DNA from: an uncultured bacterium
GTDB lineage: Bacteria; Verrucomicrobiota; Verrucomicrobiia; Limisphaerales; UBA8199
Assembly (NCBI GenBank): GCA_963749495.1
Contig: CAVVMW010000024.1
Coordinates: 64,001-128,000, forward strand
Direction of reading: 5' to 3'
Length of the DNA: 64,000 nucleotides
Shown: positions 21,775-45,319 of the stretch, piece by piece
Position numbering within the stretch: position 1 is the stretch's first letter
How the letters are laid out: each line of letters starts with the position of its first letter
Position numbers and translations under genes: made by a program
Notes under the pieces: generated by a model
The model's database searches: none
Seen by the model: the letters and a program-made list of their open reading frames with translations, nothing else
What the model was told of the DNA's origin: nothing

Positions 21775-22413
21775 TTTGTCCCGGAGGGACATCCCGAGAA
21801 TAGCCCGGCGCTTCAGCGCCGGGTACGATGCCCAAAAAACCCGCGTCCCGAAAGGGACGCCTGAAGCTCAGTCCCATAAATACCGCTCATCGTACTCGAT
21901 GCGATGCTTCTTGAGCATGGCCAGAAATTCCTCCTGGAATGTCCTGCGCCGATGGTGCTGCTCCTGGCCTTGGATGTAGCGAATAGTTTTGTCCAATACC
22001 GACACGCTCACGCTGAAGGCGCCAGACTTCTCCTGCCATTGGAAGCGCCGGTGCTCCGGGAAGCTCTCATGCACCCATCTTGAGGAGGCGCCCTTAAGGA
22101 GTTGGAGGGCTTGGGCCATCGAGAGGGTCGCGGGAAGCGACAGCAGGATATGGACGTGATCGGGCGTGCCGCCAATCTCGATGGCTTTCATCCGGTTCTG
22201 ACGGGCGATGCCGCCCAGGAAGGGCCAGAGCCGTTCCCGTAGCTCGGGCGTGATCAGGGGGCGCCGTTCCTTCGTGCTGAAAACGCAATGCAGCCAGGAG
22301 CTGATGTATGACACGCGGCTGATTCAACCGTCCCTTCGGGACGGAAGCAACACTAAAGGGGCTGTCCCGGCGCTGAAGCGCCGGGCTATTTTCAGGTGTC
22401 CCTCCGGGACAAA
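21775..22413. mobile_element. REPtron-like element: Y1 transposase flanked by ~90-bp inverted multi-hairpin repeats (21775-21865 and 22323-22413)
   Basis: Flanks are reverse complements sharing TTTGTCCCGGAGGGAC..AATAGCCCGGCGCTTCAGCGCCGGG..GTCCCGAA(A)GGGACG. Confidence 0.8.
21868..22314 (-). CDS. tnpA: IS200/IS605-family HUH Y1 transposase (RAYT-like)
   Basis: HCVFSTK, DHVH (HUH), KGASSRW, WQ..GAFSVS and YIQGQ (catalytic Tyr). Confidence 0.9.
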   Translation of the reverse strand: MSYISSWLHCVFSTKERRPLITPELRERLWPFLGGIARQNRMKAIEIGGTPDHVHILLSLPATLSMAQALQLLKGASSRWVHESFPEHRRFQWQEKSGAFSVSVSVLDKTIRYIQGQEQHHRRRTFQEEFLAMLKKHRIEYDERYLWD

Positions 22414-30678: not shown

Positions 30679-30908
30679 TTTAGGGCGTTGCCCTTGACCA
30701 GGAACAAGGCGTAGAACACGATGGCCTCGGCGAAGGCGATGGCCAGGATCGACTGGACCAGGATCTTGGTGGCCGCGCCGGGATTGCGCCCCACCGCCTC
30801 CGAGGCCTTCATGCCGATGAACCCCACGCCGAGGGCCGCGCCCAGCGCCGCCAGGCCCACGTGCAGGTTGCCGGTCAGTCCCTGTGCCAACATTGGCATT
30901 AACGACAT
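30679..30908 (-). CDS. atpE: ATP synthase Fo subunit c (true stop probably near 30679; an extra base causes readthrough to 30567)
   Basis: GRNP loop and FAEAI carboxylate. Confidence 0.88.
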
Positions 30909-30988
30909 ATATGTTTTCCTTTCTGTTCTATTGCCCGGCGGCTCCCGCGAGTGAACACGGTCCAGCCGCCGAAATTGTGAGTCTCAAT

Positions 30989-31933
30989 TCAATGGTGCGC
31001 CGCCTCGGCGCCCTCTTCGTGGGCGCAAATGAGCATCGTGAAGACGGCCGTCAGCAGCATGAAAACCAGCGCCTGGACGAACCCGACCAGTAATTCCATG
31101 AAATAGAACGGGATGGGCAGCAGCCAGCCCAGGCCGGGCACCAGCTTCGACATCGCCTCGAGCATGTTCTCACCGGCAAAGATATTGCCAAAGAGACGGA
31201 AGCTCAGCGAGACCGGGCGGAACAGGATCGAGATGACCTCGAGCCATCCCACCACGAAGAACACAATCACCATGAGGAGCTTGAGCGGGCCCCGGGTCTC
31301 GCCCTTGGGCGCGAACAGGTGCATCAGGAAGCCGATGGGGCCGATCTCCCGCAGCGCCCAGAAGACCCAGCAGGCGAAAAAAACCAGGGCCATGGCAAGG
31401 GTCATGTTCAAATCCGCGTTGGCGCCGCGCAACCAAGGGTCATCCACGACAAAGCCGCGCGGCGTTTGGTGGCCCCAGCCCACGCTGCCCACCCCGGGCA
31501 CCAGGCTCAGCCAGTTGGCCGCCAGGATGAATATGAAGATCGTCGCGAAAAACCAGAATGTCCGCTTCACCAGGTGCCCTCCGATGATCCCCTCTAGAAA
31601 TCCGTAAAGGTCCTCCACCATCCATTCCCAGAAGTTCTGCAAGCCGTCGGGCACGCGCTTCATCCTCCGCGTGGCGGCCTGGGCGAAGAGGATCAGCCCC
31701 GCCGCAACCACCCAGGTCACCACCATCGAGTTGGTGATGGGAAAATCGCCCCAGGGCATGGGGATGCGTGCAATCTCGACCGCGCGCTGGGGCAGGGCGT
31801 GCTCCTCCCGCTCCGCCGTGCCAGCCGCCGCCGCTCCCGCCTGGGACGCCGCAACGGGCGGTTCGGCGCTCCAGCCCAATCGAGGCGCTCCTGCCAGAAG
31901 GACCCACACCATTATGATTCTGAGTAATCGCAT
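30989..31933 (-). CDS. atpB: ATP synthase Fo subunit a with N-terminal extension
   Basis: RPVSLSFRLFGNIFAG, QALVFMLLT. Confidence 0.93.
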   Translation of the reverse strand: MRLLRIIMVWVLLAGAPRLGWSAEPPVAASQAGAAAAGTAEREEHALPQRAVEIARIPMPWGDFPITNSMVVTWVVAAGLILFAQAATRRMKRVPDGLQNFWEWMVEDLYGFLEGIIGGHLVKRTFWFFATIFIFILAANWLSLVPGVGSVGWGHQTPRGFVVDDPWLRGANADLNMTLAMALVFFACWVFWALREIGPIGFLMHLFAPKGETRGPLKLLMVIVFFVVGWLEVISILFRPVSLSFRLFGNIFAGENMLEAMSKLVPGLGWLLPIPFYFMELLVGFVQALVFMLLTAVFTMLICAHEEGAEAAHH

Positions 31934-32224
31934 GTGCGCAAACAAACCGCCAAAGCTGTTCGAGGGGGAGACCCTGGCCTCGATCCACTGCCGACCCGGG
32001 GCCGGAAGCCGGGAAAAACTGCATCATGCCGGCCCGTTGCACAAGTACTTTTTGGAGTGAGGAGGGGCGAGGGGGGAGGGCCGTTGACAAAGTCGTAGCG
32101 CAGGTTTCCAAACCTGCTGTATCGCCGATTTCCAATCGGCAGGGCGTAGGCATATCGAGCGCCCTCGATTTGCGGACGGCCTGCGGGTTTGGAAACCCGC
32201 GATACAGCAGGTTTGGGACAGTTA

Positions 32225-32545
32225 GTGCGAACTGCACATGGTGCAGGTGAACTTTTGGGATGGGCGGTAATCACCCACCCCTTCCATCCCCGGCGCGGAG
32301 AGCGGTTCCGGGTGGTCGAAGCCCGGCGCTACCGCGGTCAGGCCACGCTGATTCTGGAGGGGGGAGAAGGTGGCACCTTTTCCATTTTGGAGGACTGGAC
32401 CGACAAGGCGGTGCCGACGAGCGCGGGGACCGCGCGCCGGCTGTCGGCGCCCGCACTGCTGGAGTTGGTGCAACTGCTGCGGCAGTTGAAGGCGTCCGGC
32501 CCGCCGGCCTCTTCGAACCAGAAAGGAGTTGACAGATGCCCTTGA
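32225..32545 (+). CDS. Small protein of the THPFHP type (DUF5372/Y4bD-like); no in-element ATG, frame open through the left end
   Basis: ITHPFHPRRGERF...WTD; family name recalled, not searched. Confidence 0.65.
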   Translation: MRTAHGAGELLGWAVITHPFHPRRGERFRVVEARRYRGQATLILEGGEGGTFSILEDWTDKAVPTSAGTARRLSAPALLELVQLLRQLKASGPPASSNQKGVDRCP

Positions 32546-32586
32546 CCGATCCATTATCAGAACAGTTATTTAACTGTTCTGATAAT
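32529..32586 (+). promoter_or_regulatory. Candidate sigma70 promoter with an overlapping perfect 16-bp inverted repeat operator
   Basis: TTGACA-17-CATTAT; ATTATCAGAACAGTTA-tt-TAACTGTTCTGATAAT directly before ATG 32588. Confidence 0.6.
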
Positions 32587-32587
32587 C

Positions 32588-32920
32588 ATGCCCGCTTCCA
32601 TCGCCAGCCTGCGCCGCAAACGCCAGGCCTTGATCCAACGCCTGCCTCCTTTGGCCCGGCGCGTGGTTCGCGGCTCGCTCATCGAGCGATACCTGCCCTG
32701 CGGCAAGCCCGGTTGCCACTGCGCCTCCGGCCGCGGTCACGGTCCCAAATACTATTTGTCGGTCAGCTATCCCCACGGCCGTCCCCAACTCCAATACCTC
32801 TCTCAGCAGCAGCACGCCCAGGTCCAAGCCCTGATAAAAAACTTTCAGCACGTGCGCCATCTGTTGGAACAGATATGCGACATCAACCGCCAACTCTTAC
32901 GCCGCCAGGAGAAGGTCTGA
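32588..32920 (+). CDS. Small Cys/His protein (DUF6788-like)
   Basis: RGSL..CGKPGCHC..GHGPKYYLS. Confidence 0.75.
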   Translation: MPASIASLRRKRQALIQRLPPLARRVVRGSLIERYLPCGKPGCHCASGRGHGPKYYLSVSYPHGRPQLQYLSQQQHAQVQALIKNFQHVRHLLEQICDINRQLLRRQEKV

Positions 32921-33047
32921 GCGATGCAGCCGGCGGCCTTGCGGATCGATCCCCGGCCGGTGGCGCAGGTGGTCGCCACCATGCTCCAGGCGTTCCGTCG
33001 GGCTGGCGCACCCTTGCCTCCGCCGCCTTGGGCGGCCAACGCTGCTT

Positions 33048-35144
33048 ATGAACACCGAGTTGGTCCAGGAAACTCATCGCCAAAAACTGGCCTGCATTTA
33101 CCTGCGCCAGTCAACCCTCAACCAAGTGCGCCAGCACCGGGAGAGCACCGAGCGCCAATACGCGCTCCGGGACAAGGCCCTTCAACTGGGCTGGCCGCCG
33201 GAGCGGATACTCACTCTGGACGGCAACCTGGGGATCTCGGGCAGCCAGATGGCCAACCGACCGGATTTCCAACGAGTGGTGTCGCTGGTCTCCTTACAGA
33301 AGGTGGGCGCGGTTCTCGCCCTGGAGGCCTCCCGCCTGTCGCGCTCGGATCTGGACTGGCATCGGCTAGTGGACTTGTGTGGGTGGACGGGCACGTTGCT
33401 CATCGACAAAGACGGCGCTTACAACCCCGGGGATTTCAACGACCGCTTGCTCTTGGGACTCAAGGGTACGATGTCCCAGGCCGAACTGCACTTCTTGCGC
33501 GTCCGCCTCCAGGGCGGCAAGCTCAACAAAGCGCGCAAAGGCCAACTGCGTTTTCCCCTGCCGGTGGGCTTTGTTTATGCCGAGGCCGAGGGCATCGTTT
33601 TAGACCCGGACCAGGAGGTGCAGGGCGCCGTGCGCCTGGTCTTCAGCAGCTTTGGGCAAACCGCCAGCGCTTACGGAGTGGTGCAGCATTTTGCCAAGCA
33701 CCAGTTGCTCTTCCCCAAGCGCAGCTACGGTGGAGTCTGGAACGGGCAGTTGCGGTGGGGCCGCTTGAACCATGGCCGCGTCCTGAGTCTATTGCGCAAC
33801 CCGGCTTACGCCGGGGCCTATGTATTCGGTCGGCGGCGAACCTGCAAAAACTTCTCGCCCACTGGCCAGATGCACAATACCGTCCGCTCTATGCCTTTGG
33901 CCGAGTGGCAAGTGAACCTGCCCAACCAACATCCGGGCTACATCCCCTGGGAGGAATATCTGGCCAACCAGCAGCGGCTGGCGCAGAACCAAACCAACGC
34001 TTGCCCTGGCGCCGCCGGTTCGGCGGCGCGCGAAGGGCAGGCGCTGCTGCAAGGTCTGCTGGTCTGTGGTCAGTGCGGGCACCGGCTCTCCCCGCGTTAC
34101 GTGGGACAGGGCGGTTGCCTGGTTTGGTATGAATGCAACTGGCGGCGGCGAGAACTGGCAGGCAAAGGCTGCTGGTCGGTTCGTGGCAACCTGCTGGATG
34201 AAGCCGTCGCCCGGCGGATCTTGTCGGCGCTGGTGCCGACGCAGGTGGAAATCGCCTTGGCTGCCGTGGCGGAGGTCGAACAGCGCAACCAGGCGTTGGA
34301 GCATCAATGGCAGCTCAGAATCCAGCGAGCCGAGTATGAAGGGCAGTTGGCCCAACGGCGCTTCGAGGAAGTCGATCCGGCCAACCGTCTGGTAGCAGCA
34401 ACGCTCGAACAACGTTGGGAACACGCCTTGCAGCAACTCGAAGGGTTGCGCCAGCAATACCGGCAATATCAGGAAAAGCAAACCCCGCCCTTGTCGGCGG
34501 AGCAACAGGCCCAAGTACGATTGCTGGCCGAGGACCTGCCGCGGCTCTGGCAAGCGGCCACCACGACCGCCAAGCAGCGCAAGTGCATTTTGCGGCTGCT
34601 GCTCAAGGATATTACACTGGAAAAGCGGCCGGCAACGCACCAGGCGATCTTGCATTTGCGCTGGCAAGGAGAGGCCACCGAGGACCTCGTGGTCGAGCTG
34701 CCGCTTAACGCTGCCGACCGCTGGCGCTACACGGAGGCCCTCGTGAGCAAAGTGCGGCAACTCGCCCAGCAACAGACCGACCGCCAGATTGCCCTCACCC
34801 TGAACCAGGAAGGCCTCCGAAGCGCCAAAGGCCGAGCTTTTACCGTCAGTATGGTCGCCTGGATTCGGTGCAAGCACCACATTCCGGCCCCAGTGCTGCA
34901 ACAACCCGGCGAGTTGACGGTGCAGCAACTGAGCCAAAAGTTTGCCGTTAGCCAATACGTGGTTCACTATTGGCTCAAGAACGGACTGGTGACAGCTCGA
35001 AAAGCGCAACCCGACGGCCGGATGTGGATCGCGTTGACGGCCCAACAAGAGCAGGCGTTGCGGGCTTGGGTGGCCAACTCCAAGCGGATCGCCAAATCAA
35101 AAAGCCGGCAAGCCCTAAACGAAATTGCACCAGGTGTAGTATGA
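33048..35144 (+). CDS. Large serine recombinase (resolvase, recombinase, zinc ribbon, coiled coil, extra C-terminal HTH-like region)
   Basis: YLRQS catalytic Ser, SRLSR, LRNPAYAG, CGQCG. Confidence 0.93.
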   Translation: MNTELVQETHRQKLACIYLRQSTLNQVRQHRESTERQYALRDKALQLGWPPERILTLDGNLGISGSQMANRPDFQRVVSLVSLQKVGAVLALEASRLSRSDLDWHRLVDLCGWTGTLLIDKDGAYNPGDFNDRLLLGLKGTMSQAELHFLRVRLQGGKLNKARKGQLRFPLPVGFVYAEAEGIVLDPDQEVQGAVRLVFSSFGQTASAYGVVQHFAKHQLLFPKRSYGGVWNGQLRWGRLNHGRVLSLLRNPAYAGAYVFGRRRTCKNFSPTGQMHNTVRSMPLAEWQVNLPNQHPGYIPWEEYLANQQRLAQNQTNACPGAAGSAAREGQALLQGLLVCGQCGHRLSPRYVGQGGCLVWYECNWRRRELAGKGCWSVRGNLLDEAVARRILSALVPTQVEIALAAVAEVEQRNQALEHQWQLRIQRAEYEGQLAQRRFEEVDPANRLVAATLEQRWEHALQQLEGLRQQYRQYQEKQTPPLSAEQQAQVRLLAEDLPRLWQAATTTAKQRKCILRLLLKDITLEKRPATHQAILHLRWQGEATEDLVVELPLNAADRWRYTEALVSKVRQLAQQQTDRQIALTLNQEGLRSAKGRAFTVSMVAWIRCKHHIPAPVLQQPGELTVQQLSQKFAVSQYVVHYWLKNGLVTARKAQPDGRMWIALTAQQEQALRAWVANSKRIAKSKSRQALNEIAPGVV

Positions 35145-35250
35145 AACCACCGTCGGAAACCTGCGCTACGCTGGCGCCCCTGGCGCACAGGCGCACGGAG
35201 CAACTTTGTCAATGGCCCTGCCCCCGGGTGCGGCGCATCCTGGAACAGAG

Positions 35251-35280
35251 TTGACAAACGCCGATGGAGTGTGCGAGAAT
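35251..35280 (+). promoter_or_regulatory. Candidate cys operon promoter
   Basis: TTGACA, 18-bp spacer and extended -10 TGcGAGAAT upstream of cysI. Confidence 0.5.
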
Positions 35281-35305
35281 CTCATCTATCTTTAGCAATT
35301 AACTT

Positions 35306-36991
35306 ATGATTGCAACCGAATCCTCCGCGAAACTGTCGCGCAACGAGCGGCTTAAAGAGGGCAACCCGCTCCTGGCGGGCACCATCGGGCAGGCCCTGGC
35401 GGATTCCTCGGTGGATCGGTTCACCGAGGACGACTATGAATTCCTCAAATTCCACGGGGTCTATCAGCAGGACGATCGGGATCTGCGTAAGACGGGCAAG
35501 CGATACAGCCTGATGGTGCGGACCAAGTTTCCGGGGGGAGTGCTGAGGGCGTCGCAGTATTTGGCGTGCGACCGCCTATCGAGCGAGTATGGAAACGCCA
35601 CGATGCGGATAACGACGCGCCAGGACTTTCAGTTCCATGGGATCCTCAAAGGCAACCTGCGCCAGACGATCCAGAGCCTCAACCAGACCCTGGTCACAAC
35701 GATAGGAGCGTGCGGCGACGTGGTGCGGAACGTGATGGCCCCTCCCACGCCGGCGACCAGTCCGTTGGTCGAGAAGGTGCTGGAGGAGGCGCGCGGGTTA
35801 TCGGGCCGGCTCGTGCCCAGGACGCCCGCCTACCATGCAATCTGGGTCGAGGGCAAGGAGCTGGATTTGCGCCAGGAATCCAATGCCGCTTTCACCGACC
35901 CGTTTTACGGGAAGACCTACCTGCCGCGGAAGTTCAAGTTCGCCTTTGCGATTCCGCCCCTGAACGACATTGACATTTTCACCAACGACGCCGGGTTCGT
36001 GGTGATCGAGGAAAATGGGCAACTGGCAGGATACAACCTGCTGGCCGGGGGCGGGATGGGGATGTCTCACGGCAATCCCCAGACCTTTCCCCGGGTGGCG
36101 GATGTAATTGGCTTTATCAGGCCGGAACAGGTGGAGGCCGCCGCCAGGGCCGTGGTGGCGATACACCGCGATTTCGGCGATCGAGCCAACCGCAAGCATG
36201 CCCGGCTCAAGTACATCATCGCGGAGCGCGGCGTGGAGTGGTTTCGCTCCGAGATGCAGCGGCAGATGGGTTTCGAGTTTGCCCCGGCGCGTCCGTTCCG
36301 ATTCACCGCCCAGGGCGACAAGCTGGGCTGGCACCTGCAGAGTGACGGCAACTGTTTCCTGGGGCTTTTCGTAGAAAACGGCCGGATTCGGGATGCGGGC
36401 GATTATCGGCTCAAGAGCGGCCTGCGCGAGGCCATCGGGCGGTTCCAACCCGAGGTCCGGCTGACGCCCTCGCAGAACCTCCTGCTAGTTGGGCTGCGCC
36501 CCGACCAGCGCCCCGGCCTCGACAAGCTGCTGGGCGAGCACGGGGTCCGGACCAGCAATCCGTTCAGTCGCACGCGCCTGGCCTCGATGGCCTGCCCGGC
36601 CTTGCCCACCTGCGGCCTGGCGTTGGCGGAATCCGAGCGCGTGCTGCCCGATTTGTTGACTGGAATCGAGCGCCTGCAGGCGGAGTTGGGGCTGCAGGAG
36701 GAGGAACTGATCGTCCGCATGACCGGCTGCCCCAATGGCTGCTCCAGGCCCTATATGGCCGAGATAGCCTTTGTGGGCAAGGCCCCGAACAAGTACCAGA
36801 TTTACCTGGGCGGCAACGAACCCAGCACCCGGCTCAACCGGCTCTACAAAGACTCGGTCAAAGGGGAGGATCTGGTCAACGAGTTGCGGCCCCTCCTGGC
36901 GCGCTTCGTCAAGGAGCGCGCCGCCGGGGAACGCTTCGGCGATTTCTGTGCGCGGGTGATCTTGGGCACCACGGAAGCATCTAAACCTTAG
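35306..36991 (+). CDS. cysI: Assimilatory sulfite reductase hemoprotein
   Basis: LKFHGVYQQ, YLPRKFK, ACPALPTCGL and TGCPNGC motifs. Confidence 0.93.
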   Translation: MIATESSAKLSRNERLKEGNPLLAGTIGQALADSSVDRFTEDDYEFLKFHGVYQQDDRDLRKTGKRYSLMVRTKFPGGVLRASQYLACDRLSSEYGNATMRITTRQDFQFHGILKGNLRQTIQSLNQTLVTTIGACGDVVRNVMAPPTPATSPLVEKVLEEARGLSGRLVPRTPAYHAIWVEGKELDLRQESNAAFTDPFYGKTYLPRKFKFAFAIPPLNDIDIFTNDAGFVVIEENGQLAGYNLLAGGGMGMSHGNPQTFPRVADVIGFIRPEQVEAAARAVVAIHRDFGDRANRKHARLKYIIAERGVEWFRSEMQRQMGFEFAPARPFRFTAQGDKLGWHLQSDGNCFLGLFVENGRIRDAGDYRLKSGLREAIGRFQPEVRLTPSQNLLLVGLRPDQRPGLDKLLGEHGVRTSNPFSRTRLASMACPALPTCGLALAESERVLPDLLTGIERLQAELGLQEEELIVRMTGCPNGCSRPYMAEIAFVGKAPNKYQIYLGGNEPSTRLNRLYKDSVKGEDLVNELRPLLARFVKERAAGERFGDFCARVILGTTEASKP

Positions 36992-42486: not shown

Positions 42487-42574
42487 AATCAGGCCGGCAC
42501 GAGTGCCCCCTTACTCTAGTCCCGAGCAGGCCCGAGTGCAAAGCGGGTTGGCAGGCAGTTCGGGCTACCTGGCC

Positions 42575-42779
42575 GGGCCATTGACAAAGTCGCTCGGCGC
42601 GCTCGTGCGCCAGGGAGGGGCGCCAGCGTAGCGCAGGTTTCCAAACCTGCTGTATCGCGGGTTTCCAACCCGCAGGCCGTCCGCAAACCGGGGGCGCTCG
42701 ACATGCCGGCGCCCTGCCGATTGGAAATCGGCGATACAGCAGGTTTGGAAACCTGCGCTACGACTTTGTCAACGGCCCT
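42575..42779. repeat. Intact family B REPIN inside a GGGCCRTTGACAAAGT terminal inverted repeat envelope (empty-site equivalent of the LSR target)
   Basis: Reverse complement matches 32077-32216 joined to 35157-35219. Confidence 0.9.
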
Positions 42780-42782
42780 CGC

Positions 42783-45319
42783 CTACCTGGGCGCGGCGCT
42801 GTACACCATCCAGGCCGAGTCGGGCCTGGACTTGAGGGAGAGGGGCAGGCCCTGGTCAAGCAACTCCTGGCCCCGGTACACGACCTGCCGCTGCGTATCG
42901 AGATCGGTGACCCGGTATGCTGCCTGCGGGTCCAACGCCCGGAGGACAAACCGCGCTGATTCATAAGGGCTTTGCGGGCGGCGCAGCACGACCACCATGC
43001 CGCTTCCCAGGTCCGGGCGATCCAGTTGGTAGGCCATCCAGGCGTCGCCCTCCTGCGAATAGCTGGTCAGCGGGTAGTAGTCGCCGTAATAGTACTGCCG
43101 GGCTTTGAGGTATTGCTGGAGGGTCGCTTTGGCCCAGGCGAACGGAAAGTCGTCCGGGATGCGCTCGGCCGGGGCATCGCCCGAGACCCACCAGTTGAGG
43201 CACAGCCCGCTGCACATGCTGCTGCGAAATTCGTAGTTGTCGCCCGCTCGATCCTGGCTGGTGGCGCTCAGGGGGACCCACTCGAGCAGTCCGTAGGTGT
43301 GGCACTGGTGAGCGACCGGATCGCGCGGACCATCCGTGCGCCAGAACGGCGTGGCCCGCCCCACCGTCTCGAGGTCGATGCGCCGCCCGCCGCTGGCGCA
43401 ATTGTCGATCAGCAGCCCCGGGTTACGTTCCAGCAACTCGTCCCAGAAGGCATAGAGGCCCTCGATGTGCCGGATCTCGGCCATGCCCTGCCGGTCCGGC
43501 GCGTCGGCTCTGCGCCAGAAGGGCAGCGGGTCCATGTTGAAATCCTGGCGATAGCATCCCAGCCCGAACTCGCGCACCTTGGCGCAAATGAAATCCGCCA
43601 GGAACTTTCGCGCCTCGGGATTGCCCAGGTTGAAGAGCAGGCTCTCGCCCCCTGCGTCCAGCAGCCACTGGGGATGGTCCCGGTGCCATGGCGTCCCTTT
43701 ATAAACCCGCTCCGGCTCGAACCAGAGCATCAGCTCGCGCCCAGACTGGCGCAGGGCGTCGCTCAGTGGCTTGAACCCGGCGGGGTAAAGGTCCGGCTTG
43801 ACCTGCCAATTGCCGACGTTGACGGGCCAGGCGCCCTGGCCGAACCACTCGGCGTCGATCCAATAATAGTCGATGGGCAACTCCTGGCGGACGATCTTGC
43901 GGATATTGTCCAGGTGTACCTCGGCCCGCGTGCCGCCCCAGTTGCCGCAAGTCACGGGAGCCACCAGCGGCTGGCCGGCGCGCATGGGCCGATGGTGGGC
44001 GAGCAGGAACTGGCGCAGCAGGTTCTGTCCGCGCCAGCGGTCCCCCTCGTAGAAGAGCAGGAGCATCCTCGGCGTGCGAATCGTCTCGCCCGGATAGAGC
44101 ACCAGGTGAGTCCGGTCCATGCCCACCTTCATGGACACCTCGCCGCGCGGGCCACAAGCGAACTCGGCCGCCCATTCGCCGCTCCAGCCCGCCGCCGCCA
44201 CAATGCCGCCGTTGGCCCCCTCGATATTGAAGAAGGGCAGCACCTGGCTGGAGGAACGGCCGCCACCGGGCTGGAGCCGGAGCCTGGCGCCAGGCTCAAG
44301 CGCCTGTTGCTGCGGCGCAAAGTCATCGAACGAGGCCACCGCCCCTTTGGCCCAGTGGAGCACCGCCTGGCCTGCGGTGGGCACGGGCAGCACGGCGTCC
44401 AGGGCCTGGATGGCCTCCAGCAGGGGCGTGTTGGTCTCTTGCGTGTTGGCCAGGCGCACGACCCATTCGACCGCGGGGAAATCGGTGAACTGCACCGCTT
44501 CGAGCCGGACTTCCAGCCCGCCTGCCGGGTCGTGCCAGGTGGCTTGCCGGCGCCGGCCCTGGCCTTCGACCCGTTGCTCCTGGCCCTGGCGCGGCCAGCC
44601 GCTCAACAGCCCGGCGCTGTTGGCGCCGCGGCAACGAAAGGAGAAGCCGTATGGATTGGCGTCCGCACTCCCTGCCCAGGGCAAATCCTGAAGCCGCCGG
44701 CGCGTCCCGTCCTCAGCACCACCACCGCCTCCCCCCAAAGCGCCTGGTCCCAGCCTCGCCCGTCTCCGCCGTCCTTGACCCGGATCTCGAATTCACGCGC
44801 CCCGCCCAGCGGGAGGTCCAGGGCCATCGGGCCGTCTTTGCGCCGGCGCACCGGCGAGGCGAATGCCTCCTTGCCCCCGACCAAGACGTGGAAGGTGACC
44901 GACCCCTGGCCCAGTGCCTCGCCTCGCCGCGTGTCGTCGTTGTTCTCCAGGCCGATCTCCGCGGTGAACCGTTGCGCCGGTCCGCCGGGGTGGACCAGGA
45001 TGTGCTTGGTGGAGTTGAAGGCGATGCCGTGCGAGTAGGTCTTGTCGCCCAGTTGGTAGGGCGTGCCTCGCCACGATTTGCCGCGGGTTATCCCATCGGG
45101 CACGTCTTCATACAACAGCTTGAGATACTGGCCCCCTCCTGCCGCGGCATCGGTGCTGAAAAGCCGATCTACCCACGCCCCGCACGCCATGAACTCCCCC
45201 GCCTGCGGCGTCACTGCCGGGGCACGGCAAGCCGCGCACGCTAAAACCAGCCCGAGGGCCGCAACGGCCCGAAACTCATCTCGCACTGCTCCTTTTGCAG
45301 GAATGTGTATGAAAATCAT
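42783..45319 (-). CDS. NPCBM-domain GH36-like alpha-galactosidase (frameshift near 44712)
   Basis: WIDAEWF, LWFEPE, YRQDFN and DNCASGGRR motifs; N-terminal NPCBM-like module. Confidence 0.8.

Follow-up and report, generated by a model that had tools for sequence, protein, structure and literature searches.

We describe here a compact mobile element from an uncultured bacterium of the phylum Verrucomicrobiota (lineage Verrucomicrobiia; Limisphaerales; UBA8199). It lies in a stretch of 64,000 nucleotides, called the window in what follows, which corresponds to positions 64,001 to 128,000 of the forward strand of contig CAVVMW010000024.1 in assembly GCA_963749495.1 (11.4 Mb in 31 contigs, 88% complete, 5.8% contamination). 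The element carries three genes, one of which encodes a large serine recombinase (LSR), and it interrupts a multicopy palindromic repeat of its host. The features at the locus, in window coordinates, are the following.

32077-32216, no strand: left part of the host repeat, which is about 205 bp long when uninterrupted and resembles a miniature inverted-repeat transposable element (MITE); it contains an unused palindrome (32095-32123) and one half of the target palindrome (32201-32216)
32215-32216, no strand: left copy (attL side) of the putative GG crossover core; GG is present on both sides in six of six copies of the element
32217-35154, + strand: the mobile element, 2,938 bp with three genes; six genomic copies align over positions 1-2938
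32217-32245, + strand: left end of the element, one arm of the putative attachment site of the element (attP), with an inverted-repeat match to the right end
32225-32545, + strand: body of the DUF5372 gene (Pfam PF17342, E = 1e-12), in a frame that is open from the left end
32529-32557, + strand: promoter-like TTGACA-17-CATTAT, 5' of the DUF6788 gene, a consensus match only (10 of 12 positions)
32553-32586, no strand: perfect palindrome of 16+16 nt, a candidate operator, 100% complementary with 2 nt between the arms
32588-32920, + strand: DUF6788 gene, 110 aa (Pfam PF20586, E = 3.6e-26)
33048-35144, + strand: LSR gene, 698 aa, with Resolvase, Recombinase and Zn_ribbon_recom domains
35126-35154, + strand: right end of the element, the other putative attP arm, with a Shine-Dalgarno (SD)-like AGGTG (35132-35136) and an ATG (35141-35143)
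35155-35219: right copy of the GG core (35155-35156), then the remaining half of the target palindrome and the remainder of the host repeat on this side
42575-42779, - strand: intact, empty copy of the host repeat, atypical and with small indels

The insert splits a 29-nt palindrome after base 16. GATACAGCAGGTTTGG ends at 32216 and AAACCTGCGCTAC begins at 35157, and the dinucleotide GG is found on both sides (32215-32216 and 35155-35156), just as a preliminary description of the window had it. That description had also read the two termini as imperfect inverted repeats, and indeed the terminal 29 nt match each other at 20 of 29 positions; among 200,000 random 29-mers of the contig, one matched the left end at 19 or more. 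It had stated further that removal of the insert restores a near copy of the repeat at 42575-42779, and this too is borne out. When the repeat around the insert (32077-32216 plus 35155-35219) is compared with the opposite-strand copy (42571-42783 in the alignment; match rows C24:106641-106783 and C24:106571-106642), the left 144 nt are 95% identical and the right 68 nt 86%. Against the sites that can be rebuilt out of the occupied copies, the copy at 42575-42779 itself shows 5-7 differences in 62 positions. In empty copies of the repeat elsewhere in the genome, the two halves abut with an overlap of 2 nt (for example C10:353342-353480 and 353479-353545), which means that an empty site has one GG and an occupied site two. 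The signature of an LSR element is thereby present: the same 2-bp core at both junctions, once in the empty site, without any other target duplication.

The recombinase has a clear domain set, consisting of Resolvase (PF00239, E = 5e-17, residues 16-166), Recombinase (PF07508, E = 7e-15, residues 191-314) and Zn_ribbon_recom (PF13408, E = 9e-9, residues 333-391). The nearest solved structure is that of the SPbeta recombinase (PDB 9dxh, E = 2e-6), the YLRRS motif of which aligns with Y18-L-R20-Q-S22 of the window protein. S22 is invariant in an alignment of 28 members of the LSR family. In serine recombinases the nucleophile is the serine of a Y-x-R-x-S motif (Ser10 in gamma-delta resolvase), and because of this textbook motif S22 is assigned as the nucleophile. 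The C-terminal extension of 250 aa gives a weak MerR-type helix-turn-helix (HTH) signal, at an E value (0.003) that is below the cut-off.

A search of the genome for further copies and their flanks, as the preliminary description had proposed, returned six full-length copies of the element, 99.4-100% identical and with the same ends. All six share, to the nucleotide, the position and also the orientation of their insertion into the repeat, and outside the repeat they are surrounded by different unique DNA. Compared pairwise, the inserts differ at 1-18 of 2,938 nt while the host repeats differ at 4-21 of 173-205 nt, i.e. they are about 20 times more diverged. The four occupied repeats with full flanks were also aligned with 54 empty near-full-length copies, the copies on contigs C19 and C16 being omitted from this alignment, as these contigs end inside the repeat. 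Three of the four have an empty copy as their nearest relative, and the other occupied repeats rank only 9th-37th of 57. Near-identical inserts in diverged repeats that are interspersed with empty ones thus point, as far as a comparison of sequences can tell, to six separate insertions into pre-existing repeats.

Among 45 genomes searched at the DNA level, a near-identical full-length element was found only in the window's own genome. Partial matches of 65-85% occur in five others, three of them at 65-77% over coding stretches and two as fragments of only 50-160 nt. The palindrome, on the other hand, is present in at least one copy in 15 of the 45 genomes, the window's own included, and three other genomes of the same taxonomic family, all without the element, contain 41, 60 and 38 copies with at most two mismatches. 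The palindrome is common where the element is absent, and the repeat is therefore older and more widespread than the element, which on this comparison is a recent arrival that has since multiplied. A same-genus genome without the LSR element (G003) contains a tandem array at C1:249651-250762, in which seven matches to the left part of the repeat are spaced regularly at 166 nt.

The host repeat deserves some comments. It is bounded by terminal inverted repeats of 23 nt (32071-32093 and 35203-35225, 91% complementary) and has 54 empty, near-full-length copies in the genome, 80-100% identical to the window copy with a median of 92%. With about 205 bp it has the small size, the terminal inverted repeats and the high copy number of a MITE. 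It holds several hairpins; two of these consist of the exact 29-mer, facing in opposite directions. The 29-mer itself occurs in 93 exact copies genome-wide, or 155 intact ones with at most three mismatches, and in the window there are four exact copies and one with a single mismatch, where none is expected from 100 shuffles. The preliminary description had called it a repetitive extragenic palindrome (REP). As a short, multicopy, imperfect palindrome the 29-mer resembles a REP in structure and number, but the strict sense, in which REPs are linked to a REP-associated tyrosine transposase (RAYT), is unsupported. None of the best 18 of 24 matches to such a Y1 transposase (PF01797) lies within 5.5 kb of a palindrome, the nearest one being 5.6-118 kb away. 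The host sequence, 205 bp of composite structure bounded by inverted repeats, is more safely named a "MITE-like composite of hairpins". The best of the 24 PF01797 matches lies in the window, away from the palindrome, at 21964-22299 on the - strand (G000:C24:85964-86299; E = 7e-25, in a frame of 151 aa).

Not every palindrome is used. The used context, with a left flank ending ..GGAAACCCGC and a right flank starting GCTGGCGCCC.., surrounds 33-44 intact palindromes. The commonest other context is the opposite end of the same repeat (about 60-76 palindromes), and a third one has about 24. Judged over 62 nt, 45 sites of the used kind are empty, and their consensus is identical to the sites rebuilt from the six occupied copies. 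All six insertions are found in the used context and none in the roughly 100 palindromes of the other contexts; these unused ones include the other palindrome that every occupied repeat contains. Simple arithmetic, which assumes that all palindromes are equally usable, gives a probability of about 0.001 that all six would fall into a class with about one third of the sites. The bases that set the used context apart start 17 nt to the left and 16 nt to the right of the core. Since only one context is used, the recognized site has to be longer than 29 nt, and the span of the distinguishing bases agrees with the 40-50 bp of LSR attachment sites in the target (attB). The earlier proposal that the palindrome serves as the attachment site is supported, as all six copies split it, with the caveat that the site extends beyond it.

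We now turn to the relatives of the element and their targets. A tblastn search against plasmids gave 530 records, mostly from rhizobia and Burkholderiaceae. The best matches, with LSRs 55-56% identical to that of the window, have the same three genes, named by NCBI "Y4bD/Y4pK family protein" or DUF5372, then DUF6788, then recombinase. A scan of metagenomes yielded 80 loci, of which 41 (L100-L140) have an LSR that is 78-90% identical. Sixteen of these 41 are complete at both ends and extend for 32 nt or more beyond each of them; the rest lack one end or have too little flank. All 16 have GG at both junctions and lie inside the reverse transcriptase (RT) gene of a group II intron, at a site that, when rebuilt, encodes a conserved RT motif containing GIPT. 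None of them is in a palindromic repeat. The same intron target was read by eye from the flanks of three less similar relatives (L031, L032 and L014, 54-56% identical), and in L031 a gene with an RT domain is annotated upstream of the element. The elements are otherwise very much alike. The left end of the window element has 0-2 mismatches to those of most relatives and 4 to that of L129, and the sizes are 2,938 bp in L031, 2,944 bp in L032 and 2,908-2,947 bp in most metagenome copies.

In a tree of 16 of the 28 aligned LSRs, the window protein falls inside a clade of ten close relatives (support 100/99, unresolved within), to which the intron-targeting L014 is sister. From this nested position it follows that the intron target is ancestral and the repeat target derived. 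The preliminary description had counted homologous elements at unrelated sequences as evidence against its proposal. Such homologues do exist, in the intron RT gene; what they show is that the repeat target is derived, and the proposal stands.

It is important to note that both kinds of site are available in the window's genome. Group II introns are represented there by six maturase-domain matches, four of which hold the RT site with 8-11 mismatches to the 34-nt consensus, compared to 3-11 for the sites occupied in relatives. None of the four, which include the one at C6:668781, is occupied. Aligned with the intron-type consensus, the repeat site agrees at 25 of 62 positions, whereas random GG-centred sites agree at 18.1 ± 3.6 and 3.75% of them reach as many; the main part of the likeness comes from the left arm (14 of 30), and it is at most faint. 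More distant family members have other cores (TT in two elements, CG in one) and more varied flanks, and the breadth of targets thus varies within the family.

A further characteristic of the element concerns the reading frame across its ends. The ATG near the right end, 14 nt before the end of the element, is preceded by the AGGTG, overlaps the LSR stop codon (35142-35144) and, if the two ends are joined, is in frame with the DUF5372 body. Within the element, the only starts available to DUF5372 are GTG at 32225 and TTG at 32255; there is no ATG. The joint-spanning frame is open in seven of seven lineages, the one on pNGR234a included, with an HPF motif at residue 26 in six of them and at residue 28 in one. 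In these lineages, the ends were set independently, from multiple copies or a rebuilt target, and the LSR is 41-56% identical to that of the window or to each other. Among the 22 close relatives with both ends, 20 have ATG at this position, another starts with GTG, and in a single decayed copy the frame is broken. The protein collection contains 97 relatives of DUF5372, most of them from contigs of 1-5 kb. Their lengths as called vary between 65 and 151 aa, which is what a gene that lacks a proper start when integrated would give. The genome also contains two further members of the LSR family, at G000:C18:76838-78553 (L046, 43% identical) and G000:C6:405884-407184 (L047 and L048, 38%). The latter is broken into two frames, and the former has a DUF5372-like open reading frame toward its left side, with the typical GTGCAGTATGAAA stretch following directly on the LSR stop.

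What the two small proteins do can only be guessed. The structural model of DUF6788 (pLDDT 80) places a C-C-C-H set, formed by the residues C38, C43, C45 and H51 that are invariant in the alignment, between two long helices, and it has no PDB match at E ≤0.001. The model of DUF5372 is poor (pLDDT 61); it suggests a small beta-barrel with a helix at low confidence, and the best match, the beta-barrel of eS4 (E = 4e-3, TM 0.4), is too weak to be of use. The ESM Atlas returned only unnamed clusters, with scores below 0.9. For DUF6788 the same collection holds 1,616 relatives, again largely from contigs of 1-5 kb, as repeats would give. Some metagenome contigs with close relatives of DUF6788 or DUF5372 are of the size of the element, those that encode the proteins P0008 and P0171 having exactly 2,938 nt and others 2,921-2,948 nt; these could be collapsed repeats or assembled circles.

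Upstream of DUF6788, the palindrome at 32553-32586, which is seen as an opposite-strand self-match, overlies the second hexamer of the promoter-like sequence and ends 2 nt before the DUF6788 ATG. Two promoter-like sites were found in the region, compared to 0.4 expected. The conserved K-G-V-D-R-C at the C-terminus of DUF5372 (region 32543-32545) shares bases with the TTGACA hexamer, and the conservation of this terminus may be explained by the promoter rather than by the protein.

On the basis of these results, we consider it quite probable that the window holds an insertion sequence (IS)-like element that is moved by its own LSR into a repeat attB, that its DUF5372 gene is completed in the circle, and that its target was recently switched from the intron RT gene. 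We infer that the LSR integrates and excises the element at GG; the grounds are the domains of the enzyme, the duplication of the core, the precision of the ends and the behavior of the family. In the mechanism that we propose, the LSR would exchange strands at GG between the joined element ends, attP, and an attB of about 40-60 bp centred on one palindrome of the approximately 205-bp repeat, of which the genome has some fifty copies. Integration would leave GG on both sides, and precise excision would give back an empty repeat together with a circle of 2,940 bp. In the integrated state, the internal promoter with its palindromic operator would drive DUF6788 and the LSR. In the excised circle, translation would continue from the LSR into DUF5372 by way of the SD-like sequence and ATG of the right end. 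DUF5372 would then be made efficiently only from the circle, where it probably helps or directs re-integration. Finally, the repeat target would be a recent change from the ancestral target in the group II intron RT gene.

The present state of the six copies has some bearing on this proposal. The DUF5372 and DUF6788 proteins are identical in all of them. In three, C14:154410-157347, C14:193780-196717 and C16:34-2972, the LSR carries S22L and has lost the catalytic serine, and the C16 copy has in addition a 1-nt insertion that alters the last 24 residues. The window copy keeps S22 and has six private missense changes (N60, K121, Q331, N381, T398 and N414), one of which falls at a nearly invariant Asp. 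The copies at C4:252629 and C19:355985 look intact. That three copies without the nucleophile are present at separate sites suggests that they were moved in trans by intact ones. Some variant positions, such as 2157, fit no single tree, so exchange between copies is possible, and the S22L allele could alternatively have spread in this way.

Several observations weigh against the proposed mechanism. The action of the LSR on the repeat is deduced from sequence, and conservative serine recombination alone leaves the rise in copy number unexplained. With S22L, three of the six copies are non-autonomous, and activity may by now rest on the two copies at C4 and C19 or be lost. The models of DUF5372 and DUF6788 match no solved structure convincingly, and the roles proposed for them are tentative. 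The conservation at the joint may in part be at the DNA level, as the SD-like stretch and part of the N-terminal extension overlap the arms to which the recombinase would bind, and the GTG and TTG starts do exist within the element, with annotators calling DUF5372 from them. Seven sequencing runs of DNA type, from four studies, and none of RNA were listed, and four of the seven were compared as Logan contigs at a depth of about 2-8. Neither a circle joint nor an empty allele of an occupied locus was found in these low-depth contigs, which cannot reveal rare joints. The one loose contig end at 32216 belongs to a different, empty copy of the repeat, with four other letters in its flank.

Other explanations of the pattern have to be considered. 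The repeat and its insert could move as a unit by means of the transposase of the repeat, or the short repeats could be deletion derivatives of the longer form, the LSR being uninvolved in either case. The host repeat is multicopy, it has 23-nt terminal inverted repeats, and all six inserts are in this single repeat family, all of which is what one would expect from such a process. It would not, however, leave repeats that are some 20 times more diverged than the inserts they carry, and the occupied repeats do not form a single group but are scattered among empty ones. Relatives with the same ends and the GG core are moreover found in different DNA that lacks the host repeat, and the repeat is common in three genomes of the family without the element. 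Movement as a unit is thus largely refuted, and we regard it as very improbable. Somewhat less remote, but still quite improbable in our judgment, is a single LSR insertion, perhaps accidental, that was then copied to five further repeats by homologous recombination or gene conversion via the 140-nt and 65-nt arms. The repeat does offer homology on both sides, the six copies do not differ over the 35 nt to the left of the insert and about 22 nt to the right, and the variant patterns that fit no single tree indicate that exchange between copies takes place. The three copies at separate sites without a catalytic serine would also be accounted for. The identical stretch next to the insert, however, is the consensus of the empty copies, and is hence no sign of conversion. 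Since the differences in the flanks start 22-40 nt from the insert in every copy, very short conversion tracts would be needed each time, and the family moves with exact ends into sites where there is no flanking homology at all.

A third option accepts the LSR as the agent but not the change of target. The specificity would be the ancestral one, with the intron RT site still preferred, and the repeat palindrome would serve as a tolerated secondary, or pseudo, site that wins only by being much more numerous. This would fit with the 25 of 62 positions that the repeat site and the intron-type consensus have in common (14 of 30 in the left arm), and with the fact that only 35 residues, spread across all domains, distinguish the window LSR. 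Against it, none of four intron-type sites is occupied, compared to six of about 51 repeat sites, and with 8-11 mismatches of 34 these intron sites are within the range (3-11) that the relatives use. None of the 16 relatives with flanks is in a palindromic repeat, and the use of a single palindrome context argues for tight recognition. We therefore judge this option to be improbable, although less so than gene conversion.

If the target did change, one can ask where in the element the change resides. Compared with the residues on which at least nine of ten close relatives agree, the window LSR differs at 35 positions, six or seven of which are private to the window copy. The window-specific substitutions are found in all domains, at 2-7% each, with E217K, Y263R, R345H and Q389R among the lineage-specific ones in the Recombinase and zinc-ribbon domains, and a domain swap as the source of the new target is thus unsupported. 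The median identities of the window proteins to those of the 22 relatives are 79% for DUF5372, 86% for the LSR and 94% for DUF6788. DUF5372 is by this comparison the most changed of the three, which is no more than a lead to specificity. In one tentative, rather unlikely, reading, a lineage within an LSR clade whose members are 11-18% apart has swapped its attachment site completely with the attP ends near-unchanged, and the recombinase may not be the only selector; DUF5372, which would be made only from the circle, could choose the target or license integration. If this were true, the family would offer a natural, swappable handle on the integration site of an LSR.

Among characterized systems, the closest in layout is found on plasmid pNGR234a of Sinorhizobium fredii NGR234, which carries two identical four-gene copies with exact ends (genes y4bD-y4bA and y4pK-y4pH). 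The window element is a three-gene variant of this known but essentially unstudied LSR layout. The pNGR234a element is presumably the one named NGRIS-4; no paper was found to confirm the name. Its LSR, y4bA, is 42% identical to that of the window over residues 7-649 (E = 6e-160), and its DUF5372 gene, y4bD, is at the left end opposite the LSR (E = 8e-26). The DUF5372 protein of a 56%-identical relative of the window element is named "Y4bD/Y4pK family protein" by NCBI. The right end has an SD-like stretch and an ATG in frame with DUF5372 across the joint, and the insert is inside a gene of another mobile element, with an ISNCY transposase gene annotated adjacent to it. The differences are that two proteins take the place of DUF6788, y4bC with an HTH domain (HTH_28, E = 4e-11) and y4bB of 88 aa, which has no Pfam family, that the element is about 3.3 kb long rather than 2.9 kb, that its junction bases fit a TT core and not GG, and that its target is another one. 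The DUF5372-DUF6788-LSR elements of Burkholderiaceae plasmids and metagenomes are still more similar, having the same gene order, size, GG core and joint frame and nearly the same ends. What separates them from the window element is the target, which is the intron RT gene at the GIPT codons instead of a non-coding palindromic repeat.

Phage integrases of the LSR type, such as those of Bxb1 and PhiC31, act on a 2-bp core and have an attP with imperfect inverted arms. The window element resembles these systems, including SPbeta SprA/YokA (PDB 9dxh), in domain set, nucleophile motif, 2-bp non-palindromic core and imperfectly inverted attP arms. It is unlike them in that the similarity is weak (E = 2e-6), that it has no phage cargo, and that its attB is multicopy and not unique. 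In Tn4451, the circle joint changes expression by forming a promoter for tnpX; the joint of the window element would complete a coding sequence instead. Tn4451/Tn4453 (TnpX) and Tn5397 (TndX) of clostridia are likewise driven by an LSR, leaving as circles and inserting again at a 2-bp core, and so are elements of the "multi-targeting" (TndX-like) LSR clade (PMC10083194). The LSRs of this group commonly contain DUF4368 and recognize loose target motifs instead of one long site, and they come without DUF5372 or DUF6788 genes. There is no DUF4368 among the Pfam matches of the window LSR at E ≤0.01, and all six copies are at one long site, which sets it apart from that clade. LSRs that target sequences present at many places were foreseen by Durrant et al. 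in 2022 (PMC10083194). In the IS607 family, the small serine transposases have a DNA-binding domain before the catalytic domain and no Recombinase or zinc-ribbon domains (PMC4058570), while the window LSR has its catalytic domain at the N-terminus (residues 16-166), followed by the Recombinase and Zn-ribbon domains.

The choice of a multicopy palindrome as landing site also has precedents. IS1397, of the IS3 family, targets repeats of the REP type, also called bacterial interspersed mosaic elements (BIME). Members of the IS110/IS1111 family do so as well (PMC11187229, PMC11208158). Both kinds thereby find many harmless extragenic sites. Their enzymes are DEDD or DDE transposases, and the target of IS110 is read by an RNA, whereas the window enzyme is a protein-guided serine recombinase. 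Literature searches combining REP, serine recombinase and insertion sequence led, among the papers listed, to RNA-guided systems of the IS110/bridge-RNA type in every case, and among those listed for serine recombinase, group II intron and circular intermediate none was on the family of the window element, at the level of titles or abstracts. No literature was found on DUF5372, DUF6788, NGRIS-4 or a serine-recombinase element that targets REP-like repeats; the supplements of Durrant et al. were outside this search.

The surroundings of the insert are consistent with this picture. Genes for ATP synthase subunits a and c lie to one side of it and a gene for a sulfite/nitrite reductase to the other, and there are no phage genes among its neighbors. 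The view of the preliminary description, that this is an IS-sized, phage-free LSR element with a multicopy palindromic repeat as its attachment site, is supported by this context and by the six copies at one and the same site. No Rfam family was detected at E ≤0.1 within 31900-35400. Just past the right end of the host repeat, before the reductase gene, there is a second promoter-like sequence, TTGACA-18-GAGAAT with an upstream TG (35251-35280); the repeat and the element lie upstream of this likely host promoter and leave it unsplit. The flanks at 30700-32053 (ATP synthase genes) and 35276-36700 (sulfite/nitrite reductase) are 73-84% conserved in same-genus genomes. In G003 and G004, of the same genus, the two flanking genes are on separate contigs and the gene order differs, and with the genes non-adjacent no orthologous empty allele of the window locus could be read in these two genomes.

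LSRs are valued for inserting large DNA without breaks, and their choice of attB is poorly understood and hard to re-engineer. The main interest of the present element is twofold: among closely related LSRs the attachment site has changed naturally and recently, and there are many identical landing sites. It forms, with its relatives, a natural matched pair, in which recombinases that are 82-89% identical, with near-identical ends, have unrelated attachment sites. Because a single genome offers both types of site and the element occupies just one type, the residues or the partner protein behind the target choice become directly testable. The element also provides a serine-recombinase case of landing in a harmless multicopy repeat, a strategy known for insertion sequences with DDE and DEDD transposases, and it adds a case to the idea that an element family may sense its own excised state through a gene that would be completed across the circle joint.

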